Translations under genes and position numbers: made by a program
Virus record (IMG/VR): IMGVR_UViG_3300032247_001693
Location: 1 to 64,000 of that record
Length of the DNA: 64,000 bases
Source: a virus
Lineage: Duplodnaviria; Caudoviricetes
Direction: 5' to 3' (one strand)
Part shown: piece by piece, positions 1,575 to 60,066 of the stretch
Layout of the letters: each line of letters begins with the position of its first letter
How positions within the stretch are numbered: the first letter of the stretch is position 1
Notes under the pieces: model-generated
What the model saw: the letters and a program-made list of their open reading frames with translations, nothing else
Databases searched by the model: none
What the model was told of the DNA's origin: nothing

Positions 1575-4504
1575 GATTTATAAAACAACTCCTCTTTATC
1601 AAAATCTAAAGTTTGAAATTCGCCCCTAAAAACTAGATAGTTAAAAGGTTTGGGAAGAATATCTTGTACTAGTTTAAAGTGATGGAGTCCAGAGTTTGAC
1701 CTTACCATAAAATGAGGGATTTTGCTCTGAGGTCTATATCTAAAAAGAAACTGAGGACTATTTTTCATTTCGCTAAAAAATAAAACCAACCCACAAACTA
1801 AACAATTTCCATATTTCATTTTATTATTCTGCTGAACCCACAGGCTTATCACCAATTGTTTTTCTTGATTTAACTAATTCTTTTACAGCATTATCTGTTG
1901 TTATATTATTCATTACAGATTGAATATCTATGCTATTATGTACCAATAGAATAGATTTCTCAATAAGTATTAATTGATAAACTAGTCCGAATCCTATAGT
2001 TAGGATACAAATATAATAAAACGTTTTAACAGTATTAAGGAGGTATATCATGTGTTTCTTTCTGTGTGATGATTGGCCCAATTATTATAAATTAACGACC
2101 ACCCCTAGTCAATCTTTTTATCTTGCAAAAACTCGTTAATACTATCTCGTAATAGGGCTAATTCTTCCCTACTCATTGATGTAGAAGATTGAAGAGTAAT
2201 AGAATTAATTTGACCGTCTTTTGTTACATATTGTCTCATAACATCAAAATTAAATAAATTTAATACTCTATTGGTAGTATTAAAAACGAACTTAATATTG
2301 GTCATACTTTATTTCCAAATTTTTTCTGCAATCTAAGGTATTCTTTTTCTTCAAACTTTTCTCTTTTTGTTTTTTCTCTAGCCGCTATTTTTGCTTTTCT
2401 TTCTTTTTCCTTTTTTTCTGCTTTGATTCTATCGTCATACTCTTTATCGTTTTCTAGTCTTTCAACTATTATAATAAAATAAGGAGTATCACTCCCATCA
2501 AGATCATATTTACTATAGTTTAAATCTAAGTAAATATTTTTCATTGTTGGGGATTTAGATTTTGCCCAATCACACTTATCGTTTAATTGACAAATAATAT
2601 TTTCGAAACTTGCTCCATCAAAATCATGCAAACAAATTTCACCAACTCTGTCTTTTATATATTTTTTTGTCATTTTAATTTTCCTTTATTTTAGGTAAGA
2701 ACTTTATAAAGAAGTTTTACTAAGTTCAAGCATATGAGTCATAATTTCAAAAAAAGTATCTATGTGATAACAATCATTTTTTAATTTTCTTCTAGCATCA
2801 AAAACTTCAAGTAATTCATAATAGGGGCCAGCTACAATCTTATCAACTTGTCTTTCACATTTTTCTACAATGTAGTAAACTTCAAATGTACTCATAGTTT
2901 TCCCTCATATTTCTTTTTTAGTCGTGCCAACTCTCTTTTTTCTTTTGTTGCAATGTCTAAATGATATTTTTTAAGAGTAGACTTGATATATTCGGGTTTA
3001 TCTTCCAAAGAAAAAATGCAGATTTGATCTAGGTAATTCTCGCTGTATATATCATCGTCATCATCATCATCAAATTCTTCACTCATTTCCCCATAGATTT
3101 CCTCGTAAGCACCACAAATTGCGTCCTCTAATTCTTCCGTTCCATCATGGATGTAAATTGCCCCTGACGAATAATCGAAAAGGCTCAAACCACCCCCGTC
3201 ATCTCTTAGGACTATGTATCTTCCATCTTTAGGAAGTTTCGTCTCTTTTGCTTTTGCTTTTTTAGCCATGATTATCTACCTTAGTTAGTTCCCACCAATA
3301 CCCACTCTCAATATAATAAGTATAGACTTTGCACGATGATTTAGTATATGCCCGCCCACCATCAATCATATTACCATTCTTGAACTTTTTAAAATCGTGG
3401 CGATAACTGCTATATTCTAGCTCATTATCATCGTTTATCACCATACCAAAATAAATACCTTCAACTTTGTCGGCATTGCAAATTATTAAATTACGAGAAG
3501 AAGACAAGTCACGTGTGTCATCTCTTAAGCCAAAGTATTTATTACCAAACTCTGGGTGTGGGGTGGCCCTATAATATATATCCAGTGGCTGATCATCAAC
3601 ATATAGTTCTGTTGTGCAAACATACCACACTGGAACCCCATCCTTGGCAGAATAGTGCTTTTCTATTTTATCAATTGGGAACATTGGGTGGTGTTTTATG
3701 TTCATCTTTTATCTTTCTGAATATTTGGTGTTTAAAGGATGTAGCGTCTTCTACTAAATATTGTAGTTTTGTATATATGAATGAATTTACTCTTGTTGCC
3801 CACAAAACAAACCCATTTTTAATTTTATATCTAGTGTCATACTGATGTATTGCATTTTTTAAAGATTTCATACTTTTATTGGTTTAATTCCATCATAAGA
3901 CCATTGTTCAACAATATCCATATATAATGGTGCTGTTTGTCCACAACATTTACAAACCTGAGTATAATCTAATTCTTTATTTCCCGCCCGATCAACACCA
4001 TCTTTATTATATCCGTAACTATCATATCCTTCTGGATCATAAATATTATTGTTAGAATATTTCTCAAACCAATCTTGGTTTTTATAATATGCAAAATCTA
4101 CTGTTGGACTATATTTTCCTAACATAATTATCTCTTATATACCATATTCAAAAAATAAATTCAACTTTATAATATTCTTAAATAATATACTATCTCGAAC
4201 TTTATCTGATGTAAAAATACTTATTCTATTAGACATTGCCATTAGAGATATTTCTTTTACTAATTCAGTAGCAACTTTAGTTTTAGTATTCCTCTGATCT
4301 AATGTGTTTTTTAGATTGTTCATAAAAGTTTGTTTTCTTTCAAAATAGAGTATAGATTTTCTAAATCTTTTTCTTCTATTCTAATCTCGCTTGGATCACT
4401 ACTATTATAATTAAATACTCTAATTAGATATGGTTTATTTTTTACATTAACGTTGTGATGAATTTCGATAAGATCATATTCTAATTCTAGAGTTCTAACT
4501 TTAG

Positions 4505-5388: not shown

Positions 5389-8342
5389 TATAGCTCAAGC
5401 GGCTCAAGCTGTCAATAGCCAACTAAACATTATTGTCAACTTTCAAACTATTTTCCTCACTAAAATCTAAAAGGTCTGGATTAATAAGATCAATCATATA
5501 GTCTTGTATTAAAGCATAAACAAGGTCTGGAGTAATACTATTTTCTTCAACATCCATAATATCAGAAAGAATTCTAATAACTAGATCATTGACCTGATTA
5601 AAATTATTCCGGTCAAGATTTTTTAATTCTTCTTTAATGTTAACTTCGGACATATTGTGTCCATATTTCATAGCAGTTATCAGTTGGGAGATAAACTATT
5701 ATTTTTCCATTGACTGGTATTTTTGATCTATATAAATTAATAAAATGTCTACAAGACCAGAATACAGATTTTTTTTCATCAAGATATCTTAATGCGACAT
5801 CATGTTCCAAAGGAAACGGATTTAAAGGATCATTAGGACCATAATATGATAAATAAATTTTATGTCCCTGAATTTTTCCCAATAAAGGTCTAGTAAACGG
5901 TCTAATAAACATAAATTAATCCTCCCATGAAATATCTTTTAAAAGTCCTAGTATTCTTCGTGCCAGTGCTGCCCCGCCCACAATTCTACCATCATTATAA
6001 TCTTCGCCGTATCCACCGCTAGCTTCGTGATCTTTTTGATCTTTAATCTTTTCATTACATAATGAGATTATTGCCGCTAGTTTGTCTGAATTAAGTCCCA
6101 TGATTTATCTCCATTTTAAAACCTATTTATTCTCCCCGTTAATAATCCACTCAAATTTAGGGTCGCCGTCTGGATCATTAACCCATTTTGCAACACCAGC
6201 TTTTACAGCAGTTTTTTTAAACTCATTATCTTTGATGTTACTTCCAATAAAAATTCCCACAAGAAATGACAGCATGGCTACGGTCACTATAATGACCAGT
6301 ATAGTACCTGCTGGATCAACATTATCTCTAGAATAATACATTTTTATTATCCCCTATAAATTAAATTTTAATAGTGGTGTGTAAAACTATAACACAAAAC
6401 CAATTGAGCCACGAATACTCAACTGAACTTTTGAACAAAGTATTAACTGCCCAAATTTCAATAAAGGGACCAACCACTAATAAAAATAGTGCAACCACAA
6501 TAATTAGCAAAATTAGTAGACCATAAAATGAGTTGCTATATTTGACATCTTCTTCGTCATACTCTGGTCTGGGAGCAGTTGTAATTTTAAACATTATTTA
6601 ACGTCTTTCATAAGATTTTTTGTAGTTAAAATTGTAATTTGGATTTCAGCTTCTTCATCATTGTCTACCAAAAAAATTGAAGAGCCAGATACTCTTACTT
6701 TTCTATTCATGCCTTCGCTGAAATTCAGACAATGTTCATAACCTTTGTCATCCACCCACGAAAGAAAGAGGAATTCGTTTTCATCTTCACCAGTATAAGG
6801 GCCATATTCTGATACCATTGGGAGAGTTACAGCCAATCCATTATCAATAATTACTGCACTAGCATCCTTGAGAATCTTCCACGCTTCTTTTAGCGTAATT
6901 GTTTTCCCAGATTCCTCGTCAATAGGTAATTCATCTTCTTTGATTTTCATTTTGTTATCCATATTTTCTGTAAAATTTTTAAGTTTTCTTACTAATTCTT
7001 GTCCAACATGAATAGGTTTTTCTAAATGATCAGTGATTTCTTTGACTAGTTTAAATTTATCGATTGATCCAGAACTCTCGACTAATCCAAGTATTCTAGT
7101 TAATAACTCTCTATCTGTTAAGTTCATTTTTAAGCTCCTTGTTGATAATGCGTTTCATTTTATATATTATTTTATGACAATATGTGTAAATTAAAACTAA
7201 TTCTTTCTGTATTTTGTTTTGTACTAATTGCTCGACACAATGCGTGAATTTTTCCCCATTATGCCAATCCCAAATACCACTAGGACTATACCAAAGATTA
7301 CTATGCTTTAGTCTAGGGCGATAATCTAGTTTTTCATGTATTGATTTAAGTATAGTCATAATTCTCCCTTAATCCACGAAACATCTTGAAATCTTGGAGA
7401 AGGTAAAGAATTATTATCGCTAACAATTAGCCTCCAATATCCCCACACAATAATTACTGTACCATATGTTGGTGGCACCTCATCATCAACCCAATATATA
7501 ATTCTATCACCATGATCTAGTGTAAATTCCTGCCCCCTTGGTTCAGATTGATATAAACCAACAACTAATAGTAAAGATAAAATCAGAGATATATTTCGGC
7601 TATGAATCACTGCTCACATCCCATTTTTTCAATTCTGTTGCTTTATATTTATAGGTATTTCTTGTTTCTGGTGGTCTAGACTGTGGAGCATTAAATACTT
7701 GCACATTAATAATCTTTTCTATTCTATCTTTGAGTCTCAATAAATCATCATATTTTAAAAACTTTACTGTTTTAAGAGTAGTAAAATTAATATTATCTTT
7801 AGTTTGATCAAAATCTATATGATAACTTTGACCATTATCAGTAGTATAAATATTAGAGACTATCATTGGTTGTTGTCTTTTGATGATCTAGCTAATAGTT
7901 CTCGTAGAACATACGAGGTATTGAGTTCCATGCCATATACAGCATTAAGTTCAATAGACGCTTCCATTATAGCCTGCCGCTCACTATCTGTCAAGGCGAC
8001 CAGAGGCTGAATCTCGCCCCCAGCACATTTTTCGCGGTGAACAACTGCTTCCTTATAAGATTCAAATATTTTATAAGAATCTGGTTGATTAACTATCCAA
8101 GCAACTGTCATTATTATTTTTCCTATAAATAAATTCCCACCCAGATAAATCTATATCACTACCAATAGTTTGTTTAATTTTATTTGAGATATCTAATGCA
8201 TTATCTGTGATTTTATTCACAGCATCTTTTCCAGCTTGGGCGCAAAGTCCCATCTCTAACATACTAGCATCATTCATAACATGATAGATAATACTTTCCC
8301 ACTGTTCTTTTGTAAAAGCAATTGCTTTATTTTCATTGGTCA

Positions 8343-9731: not shown

Positions 9732-12700
9732 TTATTTTCCATTTTTGTACTCCTCTTTCCAAACCGTTTTGAGCCAAGGTAAATCAAATCCATCATACCA
9801 CACTTCAACCAGCGTGTCAACTAGCTTATCTAGAATTGTGCGTTTTGCGTAATAGTTTTTGTGTAATTGACGTTTAATTTGATATGCATTTTTATATGTC
9901 ATAGAATAAACTCTATCATCTATAAAAGTATCAGCAATTATGTCAAATTCTTTCTCTTTTAGATAATCATATATTGATCTTTTCATAATCAAACATTTAT
10001 AATTTATTGATTTCATTGAGACTATCCACTTCAAGATAGTCAACACTATCTTTATGACAAGAAAAAAACTTCCCAGTACCAGTAAGCCTACTATATAGAT
10101 TAATATGGTCAAAGTCTTTGTCAAATTGTTCGTTTTTAACTATTTTACCTCGAAAAAAATTTCCACTTTTTAGGTAAACTGTGATAATATGCTTATCCAT
10201 AGCCACGCCGCTATCAATAGCTTTAATAAGATCAGATATATTCATATTTATTTCCTTATTTGTGGTAACAGGCCAACAACCCCATTATACAACATCGACA
10301 GCAACCTGTCAAGACTTGATCTTTTTTTGGTTTTGGGAAGTTGCCGTAAATGATTATTAATTTGAAGTCTTAGTAAAGTATATAAATTATAGTTTGCACT
10401 TATTGTTGATATTATTAGTAGTTCTGGCTCCCCCAAGGCAATATTATATAGCATCCTATCTTGCATCAAAGTATATATGCTCCACTCTGAGTATTTATAA
10501 TAAGAATCTGTTGGAAATTTATTTTTTATTGATTTCATTTTCTTTCCTAAGTTGTATCTTTACCTCTAACCAATAATCTATCAACATTATTCCTCCAAGT
10601 TTATGTTGGAAGTAACTTTTTAATCTGAATGGATAAGACGATAGTAAAGAATGTTTTAATCTAATGTCTTGGGAATTTTTCATTTACAATAAACTTTACT
10701 AAATGATCTACATCTGGCTTATAAAAATAATATCCTAGTTGGTTTTTATTAAATTGATTTAGTACGACAATATTAATTGGAATACATAATGCTAGAATTT
10801 TACGGTGTTTTGATTTCATTTTAAAATATTGCCTTGTCATAAACACTTTATGGTTCTTCATTTATTCTCAGTGGTTTGAGAATTTTGTTTATTATTTCAT
10901 GATTATAAAGAAGATCCTCAAAATTACATCTTTTATCTCTCTTAAGTTTTAATTTATATCGACCAGTATGAGGCGGATCAAAACATTTACTAATTTTATT
11001 TTTTTGTGATTTCATTTTGAATTTTCTTCTATATTTATAAGTACTTTATAGGTAATATTCTGATATATATCATATATTTTTTGTCCACTATGAAATAAAA
11101 CATAGTTTGATTTAATATATAAATTTTTTAGTAGAGAATTATCTCCATGAATATTTGTGATAGCCATTTTGCTTTTTATTGATTGCATCTGTTTCATTTT
11201 ATTATTTTTTAAATCTAACGCCAGAAATCACAATACTCCTTATAATACTCGTCATAAATTTTTTTACATACATTTTGCTTAATTAGATTATAAACTTCCA
11301 TGTTAAGACCTTTCCAAACAATATATTCATTTTCAATGATTATAATTTCGGAATAAAGAGAGTGATGTTGGGAATAAAGAAAGTGATGTACGTCGTATAA
11401 TGATTTCATTTAATTATATTTTGCCTATAATATCCATAATCATTTCTAATTTTATACTCTATTGTACCAGATATTGTAGAGATTATAAATATTTTATTTC
11501 TAATTCTTTGATCAATAAAAATGCTTATCAGATTTAATATCAAATAATTATGATTTGGACGAAGAAATAACCAAGGATTTAGGTTTTTTCTAAATATTTT
11601 ATCTAATGATTTCATTTATAACCTGCTCTTTTACTGCAATAGCTAAAGTATTACTTTCATATGATGTTGTATGTTTTCTAATAGTATCTCTAATAGTATG
11701 AACTACCCTATTAGCAATAGAAATAAATGAATTGTGTCTTACTTTGTCTAGTTTTTTATGTAACGATTTCATTACGACCCTATTACTTATACAGGAAATA
11801 TCATCATCGTTGCCAAACAAAGTTTTAATTTATTTATGTGAATAAATAGTGTTTTTCCTCTTATTTGACTATTTATAATGTCACTAATATTATAATTAAC
11901 CATACTATAAACACATACAATTCCGGGAGGAGTCCCTATTTTTTTATGTAATGATTTCATTTAAATCGGCCAACCCCCTCTGTAATTCATTAGTTATTCT
12001 ACTTTCTATAAAAAATATTGGATTTCTAATCTCCTTTATTGCTTTTATTCTAATATCTACAGAAACTTGTTTGTATATTGAATTAAGCGGCTCAACTAAC
12101 AAACTAGAAGTAGATTGATATTCATTATTTAATTTTCTATGTATTGATTTCATTTCTTATTCTTGTTATGATTAAAAGAAGATAATTTAGATAAATATTC
12201 AATACAACTATTACAAATTAATTTATATTGACCCTTTTTATTAAAACCATATTGATCAACTGGTTTAGTTATTCTACAGTGCTGACAACTCTTTTGTCCA
12301 TTAACTTCTCTTAGACATTTTTGATTAGTATTTCCGTATTTAGATTTCATTTAAATCGGCCAACCACTTTCATTTAGTATTCTTATGTTTATCCGATAAT
12401 ATATACGATTCGTTATAATCATTTCATTAGTAAGTTTGGGTATTATTAAGTTGTATCTAACGTGATATGAAACTTCTTTATTGATCTTGATAATATTTAT
12501 AAATTGATATTCATTAATACCATCATAATTCCATACCCAGCCAGTAAGATTTCTTATTCCAGTAAATCTTTTATGTATTGATTTCATTTTTGATATGTTT
12601 TAGTAGTATATATTTAATCAAGTGCGGATCATCCTTGTCTGTTAAAAATTTGGCATATATAGATTTGTAAAAATTAAATGCGGGATTAGCGAGATTAACT

Positions 12701-14538
12701 GTAATTTGTCTGCTTGTGGATTTCATATTTCTTCTAATACTTTGTGATTTCGTTGAAATATTTGAATTTTATACTTAAATAACTAGCCAAAGCGAACATA
12801 CGATCTATAAATGCTTCTTTTACGAGTCCATCTATTAAATCCCATCTAACATCACACGAAACCTCTTTACTAATCTTTTTATTAATTTTTTTTATATTAT
12901 CTAATTTAGATTCATTTATATCTCTAGGATCAAATGGTTCGTAGTTAAAATTTCTTATGTCTACAAAATTTTTATGTATTGATTTCATTCAAGCCTCTAT
13001 TTTAGTATTAATATTTATTTTATAAGGTATATTTTGTATAAAGTATACTTTGTTTTTAACATACTTAATAATATTAATATTACTCCAATAAATACCGTCT
13101 CTATTAACATAAGTAAATAGGTCGTAATAGATTTTATTTTGTATAACGCAATTTATTTTGGCAAATTTTTTATGTATTGATTTCATTTTAATAATGGAGG
13201 AGTCCCATAAAGATATGATTTAATATCAGCCCTCATTATATCAAGCTTTATATTAGTTATAAACAATATATGATCAGTAATATTTTTATCAATTTCGAAC
13301 CTAATATAATATCGATTGTCTCCCATTAACCTCATTTCTTCTCTACAAATATTTATCAATAGAGGAGAAAAATCATATGGGTCAAAAAATCTATTTATTG
13401 ATTTCATTTGCCACCGTTAAATCGGCCAACTCCATTTCCATAAAACGAGCTAGATTATATTTTAAATCATGAATAATTTGATCTTCTATAAAATATATAG
13501 AACCTCTAATCTTTTCCATTACTATTGCCGTAATATATAAAGAAACTTCATCCATTTGGACAAGATTTATTGGTTTTATAAAAAGAGATGGATGTATTTT
13601 TTCTAGATACTTAAAATTTTTATGTATTGACTTCATTTAAATCGGCCAATTCCGTTCGTTATAATCATTTCATTCATTAAATTTTGGATAATTTCATGAG
13701 GTATAAAAGATATAGGCTGTTTAATCTTCCTTGTCAATATATCTCTAGTGTGTAAAGAAATTTTTTCATTTATATTTTTATGTACTAAAGAAATACTGGC
13801 ATATGTTGGACTAGCATATGTTGGACGCTGAAAATGTCTATGTTTTGATTTCATATTAATGATTTGATATCATAAATTTTCGGCTAATCCAATTATTATT
13901 TACAAAGTATAGCTCTAATTGATTACGCACTCTATGTATTGATATAAGACTTCTCTCACCCCGGTTAAGTGTAAAAATCTTTCTTCTAATATTAATTCCA
14001 CCATCAGAGTATCGGATATTATGATATTGCTCTATAAAATTTGTATGTATTGATTTCATTAATTATTCCAATATCGCTTGACTGATATAATTTATCAGAA
14101 ACCTTCTTCTTATTTCAGTTCCATCTTTAAGATTATAATTTATTTTAATAGCCACATCAATATGTGTAAAATATACTTTATTTCTAATTAACTCTAAAGC
14201 ACCAAGGTTAATCTTATAGGTTTCAATAGATAATATTTCTTGTATTTTATAGAGTTTACTTAGTAGTATATATTTAAAGAGTTTGTGTTTTGATTTCATT
14301 TTAAATCGGCCAACTCAATAGTTAGATTATGAGTAATTCCGGTATCTATAAAAGATATAGGAGATTGAATTTTTATAGTTAATTCCGTTATGATATGTGG
14401 AGAAACTTGACTATCGATACATTTATTTATTTCCTTCATAAAATATGGAATTTTATTTAAATACAAAAATCCTAAACCATCCAAAATGGCTCCCACAAAT
14501 CTTTCACAATACTGAAAATGTCTATGTTTTGATTTCAT
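9732..14538 (-). other. Tandem array of about 20 MKS-start mini-ORFs (51-96 aa)
   Basis: ATG starts at about 10016, 10538, 10819, 11015, 11409, 11615, 11772, 11960, 12153, 12350, 12587, 12726, 12988, 13186, 13407, 13636, 13854, 14059, 14299 and 14538, all ATGAA(A/G)TC. The ORFs abut or overlap. I read 10848-11015, 11787-11960 and 12571-12726 by hand because they fall below the track cutoff. Confidence 0.85.
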
Positions 14539-15838
14539 TTCATTACTTATCCATTAGAGAAATGAACCGATTTGATTTACTATTACCATAGTCTTTATTG
14601 GAATAATTTCGGTCTTGAACGGTATTAATATGGCGAATTATTAGGTGCAAATTTTGCTTATTAGAGTCAGAAACAGAGTTTGTATTATGGGAAATATAAG
14701 AGTGGATTACATTATTTAGGAGGTCGATTTCACTTTTAGTTAAGAGAATTGACTTATACATCTTTTTTCCTTTTGGTTTATTTTGGCTAATCATTTTTTG
14801 TGGTTTTTGCCGCTTTTTAGGAGGTTTCTCATACCATCATACATCAAAAATCCAGCCTGTCAACCCCTCCCATTATACAAAATCATACCATAGATTAATT
14901 AAAAATAGTATTATTATCAATACCAATAACATAACCATAAGAGAGACTAGAAAGAAAAATAGTTATCTAATTCATTAAATCCTTTAAATCCTAGTATTAT
15001 AGCCTATTTCTACCACCGGATAGCATAATAAGTGAATATTTCTCAGATTAGCCGATTAGTTTACTAAGAAAACTCAAAAAACCCCGTAAAAAGGGCTTGA
15101 CTTACAACGGGCTTGATGTATAAATGATGTGTTGGAGGGGAGAAAAAAAGTTTGGAACGATGAAATATTGGACTAAAACCATAGAAACTATAGTTACTAG
15201 GGCCACAATTACCAGTTCCGATAAGAAAGGTCGATGAAAATCTCTCATTTTTGAATTTAGCCTTTTTTTGAGAAAGTGGGGTTTTAGCGGGAGTTAATAA
15301 CATTTTTACCATAGGGAAAACACCAAACATATTTATGGTTAGCCTAATTAACTTTGGTAAAGTTCCTGACTATAAAATACAATGATGCAGAGCTGAGGAT
15401 TAATAGGGGAATTATAATTAATAATCTGTGAAAATCATTATGAACTAACTCTTCTACTAGTGGGTGGTTTACTATTGATGATAATAATGATAATATATTC
15501 ATAGTATTTTTTTATTATGATAGTATAATACTGCCGCCCATATTAAGATGCACGGGGCCACTATAGTATGGTAGTTTGTCCAAATTAATCTAATCTTTTT
15601 AGTCCCTTAAATAACGAGTAAGCTAATACTACTACTGTAACAAATCCAATAATTTCTAATCCTTGTCTTATGTTTTCTATATATTCACTTATCATGGGAG
15701 GGAAATAAGAAGTTTTTAAGTTGTTGCCAGTTACTGAAAGTTATTGGTAACTTTTCTGGAACACTAGGAACAAAGGGCTTAACAATTTTCTTATTAGCTT
15801 TACTAAGGGGTTTCTTAGTATTTCTTGCGACATTTTTC

Positions 15839-21574: not shown

Positions 21575-21648
21575 CGAGAGTGACGGGACTTGAACCCGCA
21601 ACCTTTGGGTCGACAACCCAACGCTCTAACCAATTGAGCTACACCCCC
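21575..21648 (-). tRNA. tRNA-Asp(GTC)
   Basis: Cloverleaf read by hand; anticodon arm ttggg-ttGTCga-cccaa; T-loop ttcaagt; no encoded CCA. Confidence 0.9.
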
Positions 21649-21653
21649 TAAAA

Positions 21654-21725
21654 AGCAGGAGAAGGGACTTGAACCCTCAACATTCAGGTTGGAAACCTAA
21701 CGCTCTGCCATTGAGCTACTCCTGC
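21654..21725 (-). tRNA. tRNA-Gly(TCC)
   Basis: gcaggag/ctcctgc acceptor stem; anticodon loop ttTCCaa. Confidence 0.9.
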
Positions 21726-21728
21726 AAG

Positions 21729-21802
21729 TAATCCTGGAGGGACTTGAACCCCCAACCTAGTGGGTAGAAACCGCTTGCTCTATCCAGTTGAGCTACAGGA
21801 TC
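21729..21802 (-). tRNA. tRNA-Arg(TCT)
   Basis: gatcctg/caggatt acceptor stem; anticodon loop ttTCTac; one anticodon-stem mismatch. Confidence 0.85.
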
Positions 21803-47694: not shown

Positions 47695-48157
47695 ATTTAC
47701 AATAATAGTTGATACTAGAGAGCAACAACCGTGGACTTTTGATCATTACGCGGTAGCAAAAAGGAAATTAGATACCGGAGACTATAGCATAGAGGGCTTA
47801 GAATCAGTATTAGCTATAGAACGAAAGAAAAGTGTTAGCGAAATAGCAAATAATATCACGGAATCTAGATTTCAAGATGTTGTAGAAAGATTGAGTCAAC
47901 TTAAACATTCATTTATTTTATTTGAATTTGATCTAGAAGATGTTCTAGTTTATCCCATAGGTTCTAGCTTGCCTAAAAAAATGTGGAATAAGATTAGAGT
48001 TACTCCAGCATTTATAATGAAACATATACTAGAACTACAATTAAACCACAATATTAAAATCGTATTTTGTGGTTCTGCTAGTAATGCTGAAAAAATGGCA
48101 GAATATATTATGAAAAAAATCTATTATATAGAAAAAATTAAAGATACCAATGGATGA
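47678..48157 (+). CDS. ERCC4-domain nuclease
   Basis: IIVDTREQ, LDTGDYSI and IERKKS..E motifs. Confidence 0.85.
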   Translation: MLNQNEFTIIVDTREQQPWTFDHYAVAKRKLDTGDYSIEGLESVLAIERKKSVSEIANNITESRFQDVVERLSQLKHSFILFEFDLEDVLVYPIGSSLPKKMWNKIRVTPAFIMKHILELQLNHNIKIVFCGSASNAEKMAEYIMKKIYYIEKIKDTNG

Positions 48158-51100
48158 TCATAAAAAAATATACGAAGACGCATGGTTAGGATTAGGAGAT
48201 ATATCTCTAATTACTTTTGATCATAATCTTATGATTAATAGGTCTAGGGAAGATATAGAAAATCCAGACCTTCATCTAATGAGACTGTTACGAGATCCAA
48301 AATATTTAGGAACAACATGTAAATTATTATTCAATATTGAATTACATCCTATACAAGTAGCCATCTTACAAGAGTTTTGGGTAAGAGCATTTCCGATGTT
48401 TATTGCGAGTAGAGGATTTGGTAAAGCTTTATCTCCAGATACTCCAGTACTATCTGAACATGGATGGAAGAACATAAAAGATATATCTGCTGGAGAAAGA
48501 GTCTATGGTTCAGATGGACAACTGACTAATGTTACTGGAACTACAATAGAGCAGAAAAATTTAAAATTTTATAAAATTACACTTAGAGACAATAGGACCA
48601 TAAGATGTTGTGAAGATCATTTATGGAAAATTTGGGATAAAAATCAAAATAGAAATAATAAACAAAATAACTATACAACTATTTCTACTAAAGAAATGTT
48701 TAAAAATTATTACTGGGATCGTACAGGAGAAAAAAGTAATGGCAAAGAATTTAGATATGCTTTACCTATTAATAAACCTATATCTAATTGGCCTAAAATA
48801 ACACATATAATACATCCATACATAGTAGGAGTACTTTTGGGAGATGGTTGTTTAACTCAAAAAACAATTACAATAACTTCAAGAGACCAAGAAATTATAG
48901 ATAGAGTTAATAGTTTACTTCCTAATGGATATAAAGCAATAAAACATAAATCTTCATTATGCTCTTTTGGTATTAAAAGAACTGACAAGAAATTACCAGC
49001 ATTTTATAAACTATGTGAACAGATAGGTATATGGAAATATAATTCTAGCACTAAATTCATACCAAAAGATTATCAGTTTTGTTCTATTGAACAAAGACTA
49101 GACTTATTAAAAGGGTTAATGGATACGGATGGATATTCTGACAGGACAATAAAAGAATACTATACAATTTCTCAGCAATTATCAGACGATTTTCTAAATG
49201 TTGCTAGGTCTCTAGGATTTCATTGCAAGCATACCATTAAAGAATCTTGGATAAAAGATACTCAATATTCTGATTGTCATAGGATATCTATTTATACTAA
49301 CGAACCCATTTTCTATTTATCTCGAAAATTAGAATATTTAAACTATAGCGTTTCTAAACAAGGTCAATCTAAATACGATAAAGTATTTATTATTGATATT
49401 CAAGAAGACGGTTATGATAATGGATATTGTATATCTGTAGACAATAAAGATAAAACATATATTATAAAAGACTATATTGTAACCCATAATTCTTTTATCA
49501 TGGCGCTATATTGTATTTTAAGATGTACATTTTTCCCAGGAACAAAAATAGTAGTAGTGGGCGCTGCTTTTAGACAGAGTAAAATCATATTTGAATATAT
49601 GGAAACTATATGGAGAAATAGTCCCATATTAAGAAGTATATTTAATAGCAATAATGATGGTCCACGAAGAGACGTTGATCGTTGTACCATGAGATTAGGA
49701 GATAGCTGGACAATAGCTATTCCTATGGGTGACGGTTCCAAGATCAGAGGATTACGTGCTCATATAATTATTGCAGATGAATTTGCGTCTATATCTCCTG
49801 ATATTTACGAGACAGTAGTATCAGGATTTGCTGCCGTATCTGCTAATCCAATACAAAATGTAAAAGAATTTGCAAAAAAGAAAGCTATGACAGAAGCGGG
49901 ATTGTGGAATCCAGAATTAGAAGCTCTTAATACAAAAATGGGAAATCAAGCCATAATATCAGGAACAGCAGATTATGACTTTAAACATTTTGCAGGCTAT
50001 TGGAAAAGATATAAGGGAATTATACAAAGTAGGGGAGATAAACAAAAACTAGAAGAATTATTTAAGGGAGAAGTTCCAGATAATTTTAATTGGAAAGACT
50101 ATAGTATTATTAGAATACCCTATGAATTAATTCCAAAAGGATTTATGGATGATAAGCAGGTATCGAGAGCTAAAGCTACAATTCATACTGGCATATATAA
50201 TATGGAATATGGGGCATGTTTTATGAGTGATAGTGAAGGATTCTTTAGAAGAAGATTGATTGAGAGTTGTGTAGTTTCTGAAAATAATCCAATAATCATA
50301 GATAATAAACAAATACTATTTGAGTCAGCAGTTGTTGGAAATCCAAACTCTCAATATATTTATGGAATCGACCCCGCTAGTGAACAAGATAATTTTAGCA
50401 TAATAATATTAGAAGTTTTTCCTACTCATGCTAGAGTGGTATATTGTTGGACTACTAATAGAAATAATTTTAAAGAAAGACTAAAAACAGGACTAGTAAA
50501 AGAACATGATTTTTATGGATTCTGTGCTAGAAAAATTAGAAACTTAATGAAAGTATTTCCTTGTATTAGAATTGGTCTAGATGCTCAGGGTGGAGGAGTA
50601 GCTATTGAAGAGGCGCTACACGATCCCTCTAAGCTAGAAGAAGGAGAACATTTAATTTGGCCCGCAATAGACCCTGATAAATCTAAAGACACTGATGATC
50701 AAACAGGATTACATATTTTAGAATTAGTTCAGTTTGCCAAAGCAGAATGGACAGCTCAGGCTAATCACGGATTAAGAAAAGACTTAGAAGATAAAGTTTT
50801 ATTATTTCCAAGATTTGATAATTTAACATTAGGATTAGCTTTAGATAGTGAAGGACAAGATATATTAAACTCTGATATGAAAAATTTATATGATAATCCT
50901 AGTGAATGTATTTTAGAAATAGAAGAACTAAAGAATGAATTAACAACTATTGTTATGACTCAAACTAGTACTGGTCCTAATGCTAGAGATCGTTGGGATA
51001 CTCCAGAAATTAAAATGCCCAATGGTAAAAAGGGTAGATTAAGAAAAGATCGTTATAGTTCATTAATTATAGCAAATATGTTAGCTAGACAATTAAATAG

Positions 51101-51242
51101 AATTTTACAGCCAGTAATCTATGAAGTTGTTGGGGGAAATGCCAGAAACATGCTTAAAAATCAAGGAGCAATGTACAAGGGGCCAGATTGGTTCACCAGT
51201 GGTGGGGCTAATGATGATTCCTATGTCGGAGTTTATAGATAA
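48150..51242 (+). CDS. terL: Terminase large subunit, intein-interrupted
   Basis: Walker A ASRGFGK|S is split by an intein; RGLRAHIIIADEF Walker B; GIDPA...D RNase H-like nuclease motif; KDRYS C-terminal motif. Confidence 0.9.
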   Translation: MDDHKKIYEDAWLGLGDISLITFDHNLMINRSREDIENPDLHLMRLLRDPKYLGTTCKLLFNIELHPIQVAILQEFWVRAFPMFIASRGFGKALSPDTPVLSEHGWKNIKDISAGERVYGSDGQLTNVTGTTIEQKNLKFYKITLRDNRTIRCCEDHLWKIWDKNQNRNNKQNNYTTISTKEMFKNYYWDRTGEKSNGKEFRYALPINKPISNWPKITHIIHPYIVGVLLGDGCLTQKTITITSRDQEIIDRVNSLLPNGYKAIKHKSSLCSFGIKRTDKKLPAFYKLCEQIGIWKYNSSTKFIPKDYQFCSIEQRLDLLKGLMDTDGYSDRTIKEYYTISQQLSDDFLNVARSLGFHCKHTIKESWIKDTQYSDCHRISIYTNEPIFYLSRKLEYLNYSVSKQGQSKYDKVFIIDIQEDGYDNGYCISVDNKDKTYIIKDYIVTHNSFIMALYCILRCTFFPGTKIVVVGAAFRQSKIIFEYMETIWRNSPILRSIFNSNNDGPRRDVDRCTMRLGDSWTIAIPMGDGSKIRGLRAHIIIADEFASISPDIYETVVSGFAAVSANPIQNVKEFAKKKAMTEAGLWNPELEALNTKMGNQAIISGTADYDFKHFAGYWKRYKGIIQSRGDKQKLEELFKGEVPDNFNWKDYSIIRIPYELIPKGFMDDKQVSRAKATIHTGIYNMEYGACFMSDSEGFFRRRLIESCVVSENNPIIIDNKQILFESAVVGNPNSQYIYGIDPASEQDNFSIIILEVFPTHARVVYCWTTNRNNFKERLKTGLVKEHDFYGFCARKIRNLMKVFPCIRIGLDAQGGGVAIEEALHDPSKLEEGEHLIWPAIDPDKSKDTDDQTGLHILELVQFAKAEWTAQANHGLRKDLEDKVLLFPRFDNLTLGLALDSEGQDILNSDMKNLYDNPSECILEIEELKNELTTIVMTQTSTGPNARDRWDTPEIKMPNGKKGRLRKDRYSSLIIANMLARQLNRILQPVIYEVVGGNARNMLKNQGAMYKGPDWFTSGGANDDSYVGVYR
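48426..49490 (+). mobile_element. Intein (355 aa) with LAGLIDADG endonuclease, Ala1 class 3-type
   Basis: Begins ALSPDTPV directly after GFGK and ends YIVTHN before Ser+1. LAGLIDADG motifs YIVGVLLGDGC and LKGLMDTDG. Block B HLW, block F GYCISVD, block G VTHN. Confidence 0.88.
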
Positions 51243-55523: not shown

Positions 55524-56534
55524 ATGTCAGCTAAATCCGAAAAGTTTACAGCAAACCCAGCCTTAACCGATCTTTTGATTCGTTCTGGCTCAAACCACAA
55601 AGAGACCAGTCTAGCCGCTAATGCAGAAATTGCAAAAGCTCTAGAACTACCTTTGCGTAGAGGTCTAATGAGTGGTAATATTCTAGATGGTATTTTCGAA
55701 CCAATTCAGTTGGCTCAGAGTGCTACTCCAGAATTTCCTCTTGATTTCTTGGCTCCTGGAACAGAGAAGGACTTTGTGGCCTACACAATTCCTAATCATG
55801 GTTATATTCCAGAACGCCACGTTGAGAGCGATTACGTTATGGTTCCAACTTATGACGTTGGTTCCTCAATCGATTATCTTCTAAAGTATGCCCGCGATGC
55901 CCGTTGGGACGTTGTTGGCCGCGCTATGGAAGTTCTCGAAGGTTCTTTCGTTAAGAAACTCAATGATGACGGCTGGCACACACTAATGGCTGCTGGTGTT
56001 GATCGTAACATCGTAGTTTATGATAGTGATGCTAATACTAGTCAGTTTACCAAACGATTGGTAAGCTTGATGAAGACAGTTATGCGTAGAAACGGTGGTG
56101 GTAACTCCGCTAGTAACAACCGTGGTATGTTGACTGATCTTTATGTTTCTCCAGAAGCGATGGAAGATATTCGTAACTGGGGAATTGAGCAGGTTGACGA
56201 AACTACTCGTAGAGAGATCTATACTGCTGCTGATGGTAGCATCAACCGCATTTTCGGTATCAATCTGCATGACCTAGACGAACTAGGTGTTGGTCAAGAA
56301 TATCAGTTGTTCTACAGTAGCACATTGGGTGCTAGTATGCCAAGTGGTAAGACCGAAGTTGTTGTTGGTCTTGATCTTCGTAAGAACGATAGTTTCATTA
56401 TGCCAGTTCGCCAAGAAGTTCAGATCTTCGAAGATGATACCCTACATCGTCAGAAGAGGGCTGGTTTCTACGGCTGGGCTGAACAGGGTTTTGCAGTCTT
56501 GGATAATCGTAGAGTATTAGTCGGAGCTCTATAA
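55524..56534 (+). CDS. Major capsid protein
   Basis: 336-aa ORF with strong Shine-Dalgarno, highly biased codons and HK97-like features, followed by a terminator. Confidence 0.8.
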   Translation: MSAKSEKFTANPALTDLLIRSGSNHKETSLAANAEIAKALELPLRRGLMSGNILDGIFEPIQLAQSATPEFPLDFLAPGTEKDFVAYTIPNHGYIPERHVESDYVMVPTYDVGSSIDYLLKYARDARWDVVGRAMEVLEGSFVKKLNDDGWHTLMAAGVDRNIVVYDSDANTSQFTKRLVSLMKTVMRRNGGGNSASNNRGMLTDLYVSPEAMEDIRNWGIEQVDETTRREIYTAADGSINRIFGINLHDLDELGVGQEYQLFYSSTLGASMPSGKTEVVVGLDLRKNDSFIMPVRQEVQIFEDDTLHRQKRAGFYGWAEQGFAVLDNRRVLVGAL

Positions 56535-56657: not shown

Positions 56658-58370
56658 ATGCTACAAAATGAAAAAACCGTAAAAGATTTCGGATACTCTA
56701 TTGATAGTTTATCTGATTTTTCAAATAAAAAAATTATAGTGAATTGTGATTATTGTGACAATATAATCATCAAATCTTATAAGTCTAGAAATATTCAAAA
56801 TTCTATATTAGATAAAGATTGTTGCAACTCTTGTAAATTCAAAAAAAGAGAAGAGCTATCCCTGTTAAAATATGGAGTAAAAAACTCTAGTCAGAGAAGT
56901 GAAATTAAGTCTAAATTATCTAATTATAATATTGAAGACTATAAAGATAGGATCATAGAACTAAATAGCCAAGGATACTCTATGCAAAATATCTCTTGTA
57001 AATTAAATATACCAAAAACTTCTTTAAATAGATATGTTAAAACTATACCTATTAATGTTTCTAAAAATGATATACAAAGCAAAAAAAATAAAACTTTAAT
57101 TGAAAAATATGGAGAAAATTGTCAACAGTTAATGTCTGAAAAAAGAAAAAAAACAAACTTGAATAAATTTGGCTATGAGAATCCATTTCAAGATCCTAAT
57201 ATTAAAACTAAAATTAAAAATAATAACTTAGAAAAATTAGGAGTAGAACATCACTCTCAAGATCCTCAAAATCAAGAGAAAAAGAAAAAAACCAACATAC
57301 AAAGATACGGTCACGATAATGTTGCAAAAATACCAGAAATTCAGGCTAAAATCAAACAAACAAATCTAGAAGTCTACGGATATGAACACGCAACACAAAA
57401 TATAGATATTAAACACAAGATAGTATCTACTATGATAAAAAATGGAAATGCAAATTACTATAATAATAAAACCAGTAAAGAATGGGCAGAGCAAACAGGA
57501 TATTGTGTTAGTAGATTTAATCAGCTGGTCAATGATTATGGTTTTGAAATTGCTAGTAAAATGGAAAGAGGAAATAAATATACTTCTTTAGAGCAAAGTC
57601 TGAAATTGTTTTTAGAAGAATTAAAAACCCCCTATGAACAACAATTTCGAATTAAATATAGTAATGATAAAACATATATATCTGATTTTAAGATAAATAA
57701 TTTATTAATAGAATGCGATGGTTTATACTGGCACAGCGATTCTGTTCAGAAAGATAATAAGTATCATTCTCAGAAAAAACAAGTCTATGACAACAATAAT
57801 TATGAATCTTTATTTTTTAGAGAAGACGAACTCAGAGATAAGTCAGACATAGTAAAATCAATCATATCAAATAAATTAAACTTATCAAATAGAATTTATG
57901 CTAGAAAATGCGAAATAGTTAAACTATCAAATTTAGAAAGCGATAAATTTTTTACAGATAATCATTTAATGGGCAAAGGCAAAGGGGATACTTTTTGTCT
58001 AAAATATGAAGACCAACCAGTTTGCTGCATAAGAATTAAAAAACTAAAAGATCAGAATTATGAAATATCTAGATTTTGCAATAAAATAAATATGTCTGTA
58101 GTTGGTGGATTTAGCAAGCTATTAAATAGTGCTATAGTTCAAATCAAACCTTCATCGGTTATAACATTTATTGATAGAAGATATGGTGGAAAAGGAGATT
58201 ATTTAACCAAATTGGGTTTTTCTTATATTCATACCTTTAATAGTTTTAAATGGACTGATGGACAAAATTCTTTCCATAGACTACAATTTCCGGGGAATTC
58301 TGGTTATGGTAAAAATCTATATAAAATTTGGGATTGTGGACAAGCTAAATGGGTACTTAATGTCTCTTAG
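56658..58370 (+). CDS. Free-standing endonuclease (EKYGV-type repeats plus PD-(D/E)xK/Vsr-like domain; probable homing endonuclease)
   Basis: Repeated K..N..K(Y/F)G(V/Y)E motifs; SDF...LLIECDGLYWHS nuclease motif; C-terminal EISRFC...GGFSKL...WDCG domain; own TTGACA promoter at 56613. Confidence 0.75.
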   Translation: MLQNEKTVKDFGYSIDSLSDFSNKKIIVNCDYCDNIIIKSYKSRNIQNSILDKDCCNSCKFKKREELSLLKYGVKNSSQRSEIKSKLSNYNIEDYKDRIIELNSQGYSMQNISCKLNIPKTSLNRYVKTIPINVSKNDIQSKKNKTLIEKYGENCQQLMSEKRKKTNLNKFGYENPFQDPNIKTKIKNNNLEKLGVEHHSQDPQNQEKKKKTNIQRYGHDNVAKIPEIQAKIKQTNLEVYGYEHATQNIDIKHKIVSTMIKNGNANYYNNKTSKEWAEQTGYCVSRFNQLVNDYGFEIASKMERGNKYTSLEQSLKLFLEELKTPYEQQFRIKYSNDKTYISDFKINNLLIECDGLYWHSDSVQKDNKYHSQKKQVYDNNNYESLFFREDELRDKSDIVKSIISNKLNLSNRIYARKCEIVKLSNLESDKFFTDNHLMGKGKGDTFCLKYEDQPVCCIRIKKLKDQNYEISRFCNKINMSVVGGFSKLLNSAIVQIKPSSVITFIDRRYGGKGDYLTKLGFSYIHTFNSFKWTDGQNSFHRLQFPGNSGYGKNLYKIWDCGQAKWVLNVS

Positions 58371-59067: not shown

Positions 59068-60066
59068 GTGGAGAATAAAATGCCAGTTCAAACTAGAATT
59101 CAAATAAGAAGAGGCACTAGCGCCCAGTGGACAGCATCAACCGATGCTCTTAGTTCTGGAGAAATAGGCTATGATACCACATTAAAAAAAATAAAACTGG
59201 GAGATGGTAGTACATTATTTAATAGTTTGCCTTGGTTGAGCGTTTTACCGTCCGGAGCGGGCGGTTTATCTGGTACTAGCGGAATATATTTAATTGGCGA
59301 TTCTTCTGGAGGAGTCTTAATTAGTTTAACAGGATTAAAGATTGGCTCAGATATCCAAGCTTATGACGCTGGATTAAATAGTATAGCTAATCTAAATACA
59401 GTTAGTGGAAATTATATTTATACTACTGGAACAGACGCTTATACTACAGGAACTATAACAGCTTTTGCCCGAAATCTTTTAGCAGCAGCAGATGCAGCAG
59501 CATCAAGAGTTTCTCTTGGTTTGGGAACTATAGCTACCGAACCTAGTGGTAATTACGCTTTAACTTCTCATACTCATCTATGGTCAAATATCTCTGATGC
59601 TTCCTCAAGAGCAACATTAACAGAATTAAGTTATTTATCAGGAGTTAGCCCCGGAGTTGGTTCTGGTACTAGGGCCGTTGTACTAGATTCTAATAAAGAC
59701 TTTTCCGGTATTAGAAACTTAACTATGACGGGGGATTTAACAGTTCAAAATTTGAATGTTAATGGAACCACCACTACTGTTAATAGTACAACGGTAAATA
59801 TTGGAGATAATATTATTAGGGTTAATACTAGTGGATTAACTACTGGAGGTATTGAAGTTTACACCCCATCCTCAACTGTACAATCTTTATTATGGAATAA
59901 TCCTAATAATAGATGGGAATTTACTGGTGGAAATGTTTATACTAGTGGATATTTCTTAAGTTCTATTAGTGGTGGAACCGCAGTATCATTATCTTATATA
60001 AGCGGAGTTAGTGCTGCTAGTCCAACGTATTTGTATAATTGCGCTATTGATGGAGGATCTCCTTGA
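59068..60066 (+). CDS. Tail-fibre-like protein with Mtd-like N-terminal domain
   Basis: RIQIRRGTSAQWT...GEIGY.T...KLGDG...LP motif; Ser/Gly/Thr-rich body. Confidence 0.7.
   Translation: MENKMPVQTRIQIRRGTSAQWTASTDALSSGEIGYDTTLKKIKLGDGSTLFNSLPWLSVLPSGAGGLSGTSGIYLIGDSSGGVLISLTGLKIGSDIQAYDAGLNSIANLNTVSGNYIYTTGTDAYTTGTITAFARNLLAAADAAASRVSLGLGTIATEPSGNYALTSHTHLWSNISDASSRATLTELSYLSGVSPGVGSGTRAVVLDSNKDFSGIRNLTMTGDLTVQNLNVNGTTTTVNSTTVNIGDNIIRVNTSGLTTGGIEVYTPSSTVQSLLWNNPNNRWEFTGGNVYTSGYFLSSISGGTAVSLSYISGVSAASPTYLYNCAIDGGSP

Follow-up and report, generated by a model that had tools for sequence, protein, structure and literature searches.

A shared coding start in a tandem array of small phage genes as a probable translational junction and recombination joint

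We have analyzed a window of 64,000 nucleotides (nt) from the phage record IMGVR_UViG_3300032247_001693, an IMG/VR viral contig of 87,995 bp of which the window makes up the first 64 kb. Its minus strand carries a tandem array of small genes whose products begin with the residues Met-Lys-Ser (MKS). We propose, with a probability of about 0.6, that the junction between successive genes, which mostly lacks a Shine-Dalgarno (SD) sequence, couples their translation and is at the same time the joint at which a hyperplastic early operon recombines. An earlier note on this DNA had suggested a constant N-terminal address joined to variable cargo. A hypervariable set of small proteins is indeed present, with the common start carried by some non-homologous bodies, but the idea of a targeting peptide was not supported by the analysis.

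Listing of the open reading frames (ORFs) and pattern scans identified 20 minus-strand ORFs of 51-96 amino acids (aa), with ATGs from 14538 to 10016, that all start ATGAA(A/G)TC, so the near-universal MKS start that had been described is real. The initiation codons, by which we refer to the genes, lie at 14538, 14299, 14059, 13854, 13636, 13407, 13186, 12988, 12726, 12587, 12350, 12153, 11960, 11772, 11615, 11409, 11015, 10819, 10538 and 10016. Sense-strand ATG-initiated ORFs of at least 45 codons tile 94% of the region, compared with 3% in shuffled sequences (maximum 18%), and the array is therefore coding sequence; on the antisense strand the coverage is 13%. The same ORFs have been called by gene callers in public assemblies. 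The window contains 19 copies of the 9-mer ATGAAATCA, where 1.8 would be expected; none of 100 shuffles reached 19, and 16 of the 19 copies lie within the array. An independent repeat finder returned a 26-nt start element 13 times and a 20-nt gene-end element five times. Residue 5 is His in 12 of the 20 MKS genes, and an eight-residue motif, MKS-x-H-basic-x-hydrophobic, is present in about 12-14 of them, including some with unrelated bodies. A loose motif that had been noticed in the bodies is found in the genes at 12153, 13636, 13854, 14538 and 11960.

The similarity of the starts extends to positions where it makes no difference to the peptide. Ser3 is encoded by TCA in 17 of the 20 genes, while TCA accounts for 17% of the Ser codons in the bodies (p = 6e-11). 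All nine Ile4 codons are ATA, compared with 47% in the bodies, and codon 4 has the form NNA in 20 out of 20 genes although the residue may be K, I, L, T or Q. Conservation of synonymous sites in the first codons had been named beforehand as the observation that would speak against a targeting peptide, and it is what these codons exhibit. A second element is located at the other end of the genes, where the 13-mer TTGGCCGATTTAA occurs in five exact copies (0.18 expected). All three frames are used by the upstream genes in reading through it, which results in three different C-termini, and orthologs of one gene have three different endings around identical nucleotides. Between paralogs the nucleotide identity is 83% in codons 1-8 and 45% in the bodies. 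Between orthologs, codons 4-8 differ at 0.147 per site and the bodies at 0.140, and at the amino acid level the divergence is 24% in both. Because the codons 4-8 of orthologs diverge at the rate of the bodies, purifying selection on the peptide fails to explain the similarity of the paralog starts, which is explained by repeated exchange at the junction.

Several points weigh against this interpretation. The comparison of ortholog rates is based on 375 sites, and codons 1-3 served to find the genes, so that their invariance is partly circular. His5 is encoded by CAT and CAC at the background ratio, and is thus retained with both codons. The basic character of residue 6 is retained with varied codons (AAA, AGA and CGT), as is the hydrophobic character of residue 8 (TTT, ATT, TTA and CTA), and it looks as though the core family of paralogs is under some protein-level constraint at residues 5, 6 and 8. 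In a gene outside the array (7111-7359) the sequence K-S-I-H follows extra residues and an SD sequence belonging to that gene, and the motif may therefore be ancestral protein sequence. Lastly, the interpretation does not account for the fixation of TCA in particular.

Comparison with related sequences provides the evidence for recombination. In six related short contigs (L006, L007, L008, L010, L012 and L013) orthologous cassettes are found in different orders, with insertions, deletions and replacements of cassettes. The metagenome scan yielded one true relative (L010); two further matches (L009 and L011) were discarded as chance similarities inside a bacterial gene. Two junctions in L013 are informative. 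At L013:105 the left 60 nt match the end of gene 14299 with 100% identity and the right side matches gene 14538 with 97%, while at L013:347 the left side corresponds to the end of gene 14538 and the right to gene 12988, with flanks matching at 97-100%. In both, the switch is confined to the same shared 10 nt, ATGAAATCAA, and the parents are non-adjacent genes of the window. These junctions represent two recent crossovers within the shared 10 nt. Note that assemblies of the locus break into contigs of 0.5-2 kb because the joints are repeated.

The start also appears to have been acquired by a gene of different origin. An 80%-identical relative of the zinc-ribbon gene (12150-12350), at L105:2761-2973, begins with seven other residues and has its own -10 element and SD sequence; its surroundings are not of the MKS type. 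A native AAATC marks the point where the two versions meet, and their comparison indicates that the MKS start has been grafted onto this gene. In the gene at 11015 the differences from the ortholog on L106 are limited to the first 10 residues, i.e. it is a 5′ mosaic. In a complete 201-kb relative (G001, contig L094) other small paralogs occupy the syntenic locus, which follows directly on the conserved leader gene; the shared-start array was looked for in this genome and is absent. Since the syntenic locus there carries other small paralogs without the shared start, the locus is judged to be hyperplastic across the clade, and the MKS joint to be lineage-specific. The paralogs at L094:10500-13500 belong to a different small family with a similar C-terminal region, and are tiled with overlaps of 1-4 nt.

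Between 14836 and 10312 there is no strict match to a σ70 promoter. The array is probably a single polycistronic operon running from promoter to promoter, and presumably early. The head genes lie about 30 kb away from it, and the two are transcribed divergently. The window contains 23 strict σ70-type promoter matches, compared with 0.31 expected for both strands; 22 of these are on the minus strand, and because it is so rich in such promoters the minus-strand arm that includes the array is presumably the early arm. In 19 of 21 junctions the upstream stop codon lies between -23 and +7 nt from the next ATG, the commonest overlaps being -4 and -17. An SD-like motif precedes 3 of the 20 MKS genes, compared with 36 of 64 other ORFs. 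The start regions have a median folding energy of -1.15 kcal/mol, against -2.8 kcal/mol for gene-body windows of the same array (p = 0.007), and between +4 and +24 the A content is 56% and the G content 3.8%, compared with 42% and 14%.

Other roles of the junction were considered and rejected. RNA structure, including a 5-bp hairpin with the AUG in its loop, gave z-scores of -1.4 to +1.1 relative to shuffled sequences. A promoter function was dismissed given that the interior of the array is devoid of strict σ70 matches. The presence of stop codons in all three frames of the junction was set aside as trivial at 25% GC.

We suggest that the small genes are individual cassettes, with a conserved junction as their boundary. 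This would comprise a start element of about 26 nt, i.e. AA-ATGAAATCA followed by A-rich, G-poor codons to around +24, preceded in some junctions by an exact copy of the 13-mer, located where the upstream gene ends. In expression, ribosomes most likely move from gene to gene by termination-reinitiation, because the stop and start codons overlap or abut, the SD sequence is mostly missing and the start is unstructured and A-rich. In evolution, the junction is the only long stretch of identity between cassettes, so that a putative short-homology recombination could duplicate, delete, reorder and replace whole genes there. The same process would graft the start onto unrelated genes and keep the copies of the junction alike by concerted evolution. 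The MKS N-terminus would then be mainly a by-product of the junction.

The main alternative at the level of the protein is an address, in which an MKS-(I/K/L)-H-(K/R)-x-F tag sends diverse cargoes to one destination (the prohead core with subsequent injection, a common host partner or a protease) and the nucleotide conservation is secondary. Bacteriophage T4 provides the precedent of internal proteins that share only a capsid targeting sequence (PMC3012670, PMC9026906). This sequence, found on internal proteins that are otherwise diverse (PMC3012670), is a propeptide of 10-19 residues that is cleaved after Glu; residues 4 and 7 are determinants of targeting, and residues 8 and 10 of processing (PMC9026906). 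The array proteins resemble the T4 internal proteins IPI, IPII, IPIII and Alt in being small, diverse and fast-evolving, with a short N-terminal similarity and a hypervariable locus like the T-even IP locus. The occurrence of the eight-residue motif on some unrelated bodies, and the retention of His5, basic residue 6 and hydrophobic residue 8 through different codons, would also fit an address. Unlike the T4 proteins, however, residue 4 of the array is chemically unconstrained, and the conservation is at the nucleotide level, embracing synonymous sites and, in the 3′ element that is exact in three frames, independent of reading frame. The genes moreover form a tandem polycistron with a σ70-type promoter in the presumed early arm, away and divergent from the head genes. 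Residues 4-8 change at the body rate between orthologs, one pair of 97% identity having an Arg to Glu change at residue 6, and the zinc-ribbon member shares M-K-S alone, the K-S of which is native. In two alignments no column in residues 8-20 attains 50% consensus, and there is no conserved Glu or processing motif after the tag, which is found on no other protein of the 88-kb fragment, structural or otherwise. Prohead protease profiles (PF03420, PF04586 and PF00574) were unmatched on that fragment, which is incomplete and on which the S77 control was also silent. A capsid-targeting peptide is not supported by these data, and we consider an address of any kind rather improbable. There is a slim chance that a true address overlies the junction, such that one joint both captures small genes and tags their products. 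If so, the array would be a self-assembling library of co-delivered effectors with a common destination, either by packaging and injection or at a shared host machine.

Simple paralogy would account for the array by tandem duplication of genes in which the N-terminus is the slowest-evolving part, with ordinary unequal crossovers that have no adaptive significance. Ten bodies are homologous over their full length, large phages often carry small genes in tandem families, and A-rich second and third codons are favoured in general. Yet the start is also present on non-homologous bodies, and at least one gene whose native N-terminus was different has received it by grafting, while the 13-mer is exact in three frames. 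Slow evolution cannot account for the similarity of the paralogs because codons 4-8 are no slower than the bodies between orthologs, and this alternative seems unlikely. We have also considered an RNA operator, where the start is a binding or cleavage site for a RegA-like repressor or an endoribonuclease, giving coordinated control of the cassettes. The RegA operators of T4 are centred on the initiation codon, and the conservation in the array is similarly centred, and sequence-specific beyond simple A-richness (TCA and CAT). The search of the 88-kb fragment with PF01818 (RegA) was empty, although its control was silent too; no partner was found, and no conserved structure is present. We regard an operator as very improbable, and return to the junction as translational coupler and recombination joint.

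The closest mechanistic relative of such a junction appears to be modular shuffling mediated by promoter-early stem-loop (PeSL) cassettes, which T4-type phages have in their hyperplastic regions (Arbiol et al. 2010, PMC2839356; Comeau et al. 2014, PMC4122927). A PeSL is an intergenic σ70 promoter together with a terminator hairpin (PMC2839356, PMC4122927). In both systems short repeats flank small, non-essential and mostly ORFan early genes, and have a part in gene expression as well. Where close relatives differ by an insertion, deletion or replacement, the endpoint is found in the PeSL repeat, just as the endpoints in L013 lie in the shared 10 nt. The array genes further conform in having no Pfam or PHROG match, in being lineage-restricted and in occupying a hyperplastic locus. 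By contrast, the interior of the array is without a promoter or a significant hairpin, and its gaps are -23 to +7 nt. Its repeat is part of the coding sequence, at the start and sometimes at the end, where it would serve translation and impose a common N-terminus.

In bacteria and phages there are operons in which translation is coupled through an overlap of the stop and start codons (ATGA and the like). The array is like these in having stop and start within a few nucleotides, with no separate SD sequence and overlaps mainly of -4 and -17. It differs in reusing one 26-nt start about 20 times, also as a recombination joint.

The coordinates of the array and its surroundings are collected in Table 1. 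The true start of the leader gene is probably an internal ATG at 14761, where an SD-like motif is present. Within the gene at 11215-11409 there is a 21-nt tandem duplication (11347-11388, 90% identity) that results in a repeated seven-residue peptide.

Table 1. Features of the MKS array, its flanking sequences and the 13-nt gene-end element (positions in the 64,000-nt window)
Feature	Position	Strand	Remarks
Terminator-like hairpin	15079..15098	-	Closes upstream transcription unit
σ70-type promoter TTGACA-16-TATGAT	14836..14863	-	Heads the array operon
Non-MKS leader gene of operon	14543..14794	-	Conserved in complete 201-kb relative (L094:13295-13480)
MKS gene, 80 aa	14296..14538	-	Core helical family (helix predicted)
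13-nt 3′ junction element TTGGCCGATTTAA, copy 1	14301..14313	-	
MKS gene, 78 aa	14063..14299	-	Core family
MKS gene, 67 aa	13856..14059	-	Body at best a very divergent member
MKS gene, 73 aa	13633..13854	-	Core family; 13-nt element read in shifted frame at end
13-nt element, copy 2	13637..13649	-	Different reading frame
MKS gene (ATGAAGTCA), 81 aa	13391..13636	-	Core family; protein chosen for modelling
13-nt element, copy 3	13417..13429	-	
MKS gene, 74 aa	13183..13407	-	Core family
MKS gene, 65 aa	12989..13186	-	Core family
MKS gene, 84 aa	12734..12988	-	Core family
MKS gene, 51 aa	12571..12726	-	Body unrelated to core family
MKS gene, 78 aa	12351..12587	-	Core family; 13-nt element read in third frame at end
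13-nt element, copy 4	12351..12363	-	Third reading frame
MKS gene, 66 aa	12150..12350	-	Four-Cys zinc-ribbon body, unrelated to core
MKS gene, 69 aa	11944..12153	-	Core family
13-nt element, copy 5	11961..11973	-	
MKS gene, 57 aa	11787..11960	-	Core family
MKS gene, 57 aa	11599..11772	-	Body not detectably core
MKS gene, 69 aa	11406..11615	-	Marginal core match; other cassette in its place in relative L010
MKS gene, 64 aa	11215..11409	-	Unrelated body
Array gene with degenerate start (MKQ), 61 aa	11012..11197	-	Internal start-like copy three codons in
MKS gene, 55 aa	10848..11015	-	Unrelated body
MKS gene, 52 aa	10661..10819	-	Alternative upstream ATG at 10861 gives 66 aa
Array gene, MKN start, 54 aa	10519..10683	-	
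MKS gene, 96 aa	10248..10538	-	Unrelated body; last gene of operon
Perfect σ70-type promoter (12/12)	10284..10312	-	Begins next transcription unit
MKS gene, 94 aa	9732..10016	-	Within next transcription unit
Dispersed possible family member	7111..7359	-	K-S-I-H with codons of the array after four extra residues; own SD; profile E ~2e-4

The bodies had been described as highly divergent, and as a fast-evolving, variable set they are, but they are not all unrelated. All-against-all BLAST, alignments and a body-only profile reveal ten full-length paralogs with 25-40% identity, i.e. the genes at 14538, 14299, 13854, 13636, 13407, 13186, 12988, 12587, 12153 and 11960. The gene at 11615 has a marginal match to this core family, while the remaining bodies have no detectable relation to it; at least five, including the zinc ribbon, are unrelated. 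No core member has a match below E = 0.01 in Pfam or PHROGs. A profile search of 1.84 billion representative proteins gave 16 matches, of which the 15 inspected are MKS proteins of 57-81 aa from this phage and close relatives; the sixteenth has a length of 1,897 aa. The family was not found in five complete relatives (197-244 kb). Four ORFs outside the array that had been listed as outliers, at 1220, 1389, 3671 and 7111, are all real. The MKS codons of those at 1220-1402 and 3671-3871 are identical to those of the array, while that at 1389-1574 uses AGT for Ser. The body of the gene at 7111-7359 gives no significant profile match by itself; the gene may be a member of the family outside the array, or an ancestral form.

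The core family is predicted to be helical. An AlphaFold2 model of the protein encoded at 13391-13636, made with 24 sequences, is weak (pLDDT 67, pTM 0.30) and contains a long helix over residues 33-80. Language-model and structural look-alikes in the ESM Atlas all fell under the lead threshold. Ratios of nonsynonymous to synonymous change (dN/dS) between orthologs range from 0.24 to 1.9, and are typically 0.4-0.7 in the more diverged pairs, and the proteins are therefore evolving rapidly. They are probably a lineage-restricted, fast-evolving and mostly helical set of small proteins, together with captured unrelated ones. From their position, size and rate of evolution, the most probable role is host takeover or counter-defence.

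The phage itself appears to be a member of a large clade of jumbo phages, because its portal protein has at least 591 relatives in IMG/VR at around 70% identity, among them complete, terminally repeated genomes of 197-244 kb. The names of the samples containing the closest relatives point to lake metagenomes, which suggests a freshwater origin. No match was found among GenBank phages, either for the locus by megablast or for the portal by tblastn. The start and junction were also sought in IMG/VR as exact patterns, with no match in a data set possibly without the record of the window itself. Recoding of stop codons as a source of the short ORFs was rejected, as they are not lengthened under any alternative code. 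The completeness of 60% given by CheckV for the whole contig (G000) is probably too high; since the complete relatives with about 70% portal identity span 197-244 kb, the 88-kb fragment is nearer to 40%.

Genes for the terminase, portal and tail-fibre-like proteins are on the plus strand from about 45 kb, while the minus strand up to about 44 kb is dense with small genes and holds 12 tRNA genes and one Pistol ribozyme. The latter (RF02679, 21839-21906, minus strand) scores 54.8 bits against a gathering score of 34.5, and is directly upstream of a tRNA-Arg/Gly/Asp cluster (21575-21802). The 22 strict minus-strand promoters, of the form TTGACA-N16-18-TA(T/G)(A/G)AT, are within 1-41000, many with CGATA in the spacer. 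They divide the early arm into units of about 1-2 kb; by contrast the MKS operon is promoter-free over 4.5 kb. On the plus strand the large terminase (48150-51242, 1030 aa) aligns over 583 residues with its G001 relative at 80% identity, and probably carries an insert, e.g. an intein. The gene at 55524-56534, 84% identical in G001, is followed by one for a 570-aa homing/HNH endonuclease (56658-58370, plus strand) that is missing at the syntenic site in G001. At its N-terminus, the product of a 332-aa ORF at 59068-60066 (plus strand) carries a domain of the Mtd_N (major tropism determinant) type, with E = 6e-15.

If the proposal is correct, the array is a phage gene nursery run without intergenic regulatory DNA. 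One coding-start sequence would provide translation for every cassette, and homology for duplication, loss, reordering and the capture of foreign genes. It would extend the PeSL concept of mobile regulatory cassettes from transcription to translation. It also introduces a note of caution into inference from sequence, since an N-terminal peptide common to diverse small proteins may be no signal at all. The approximately 20 fast-evolving and presumably early proteins are natural candidates for screens of host takeover or counter-defence.

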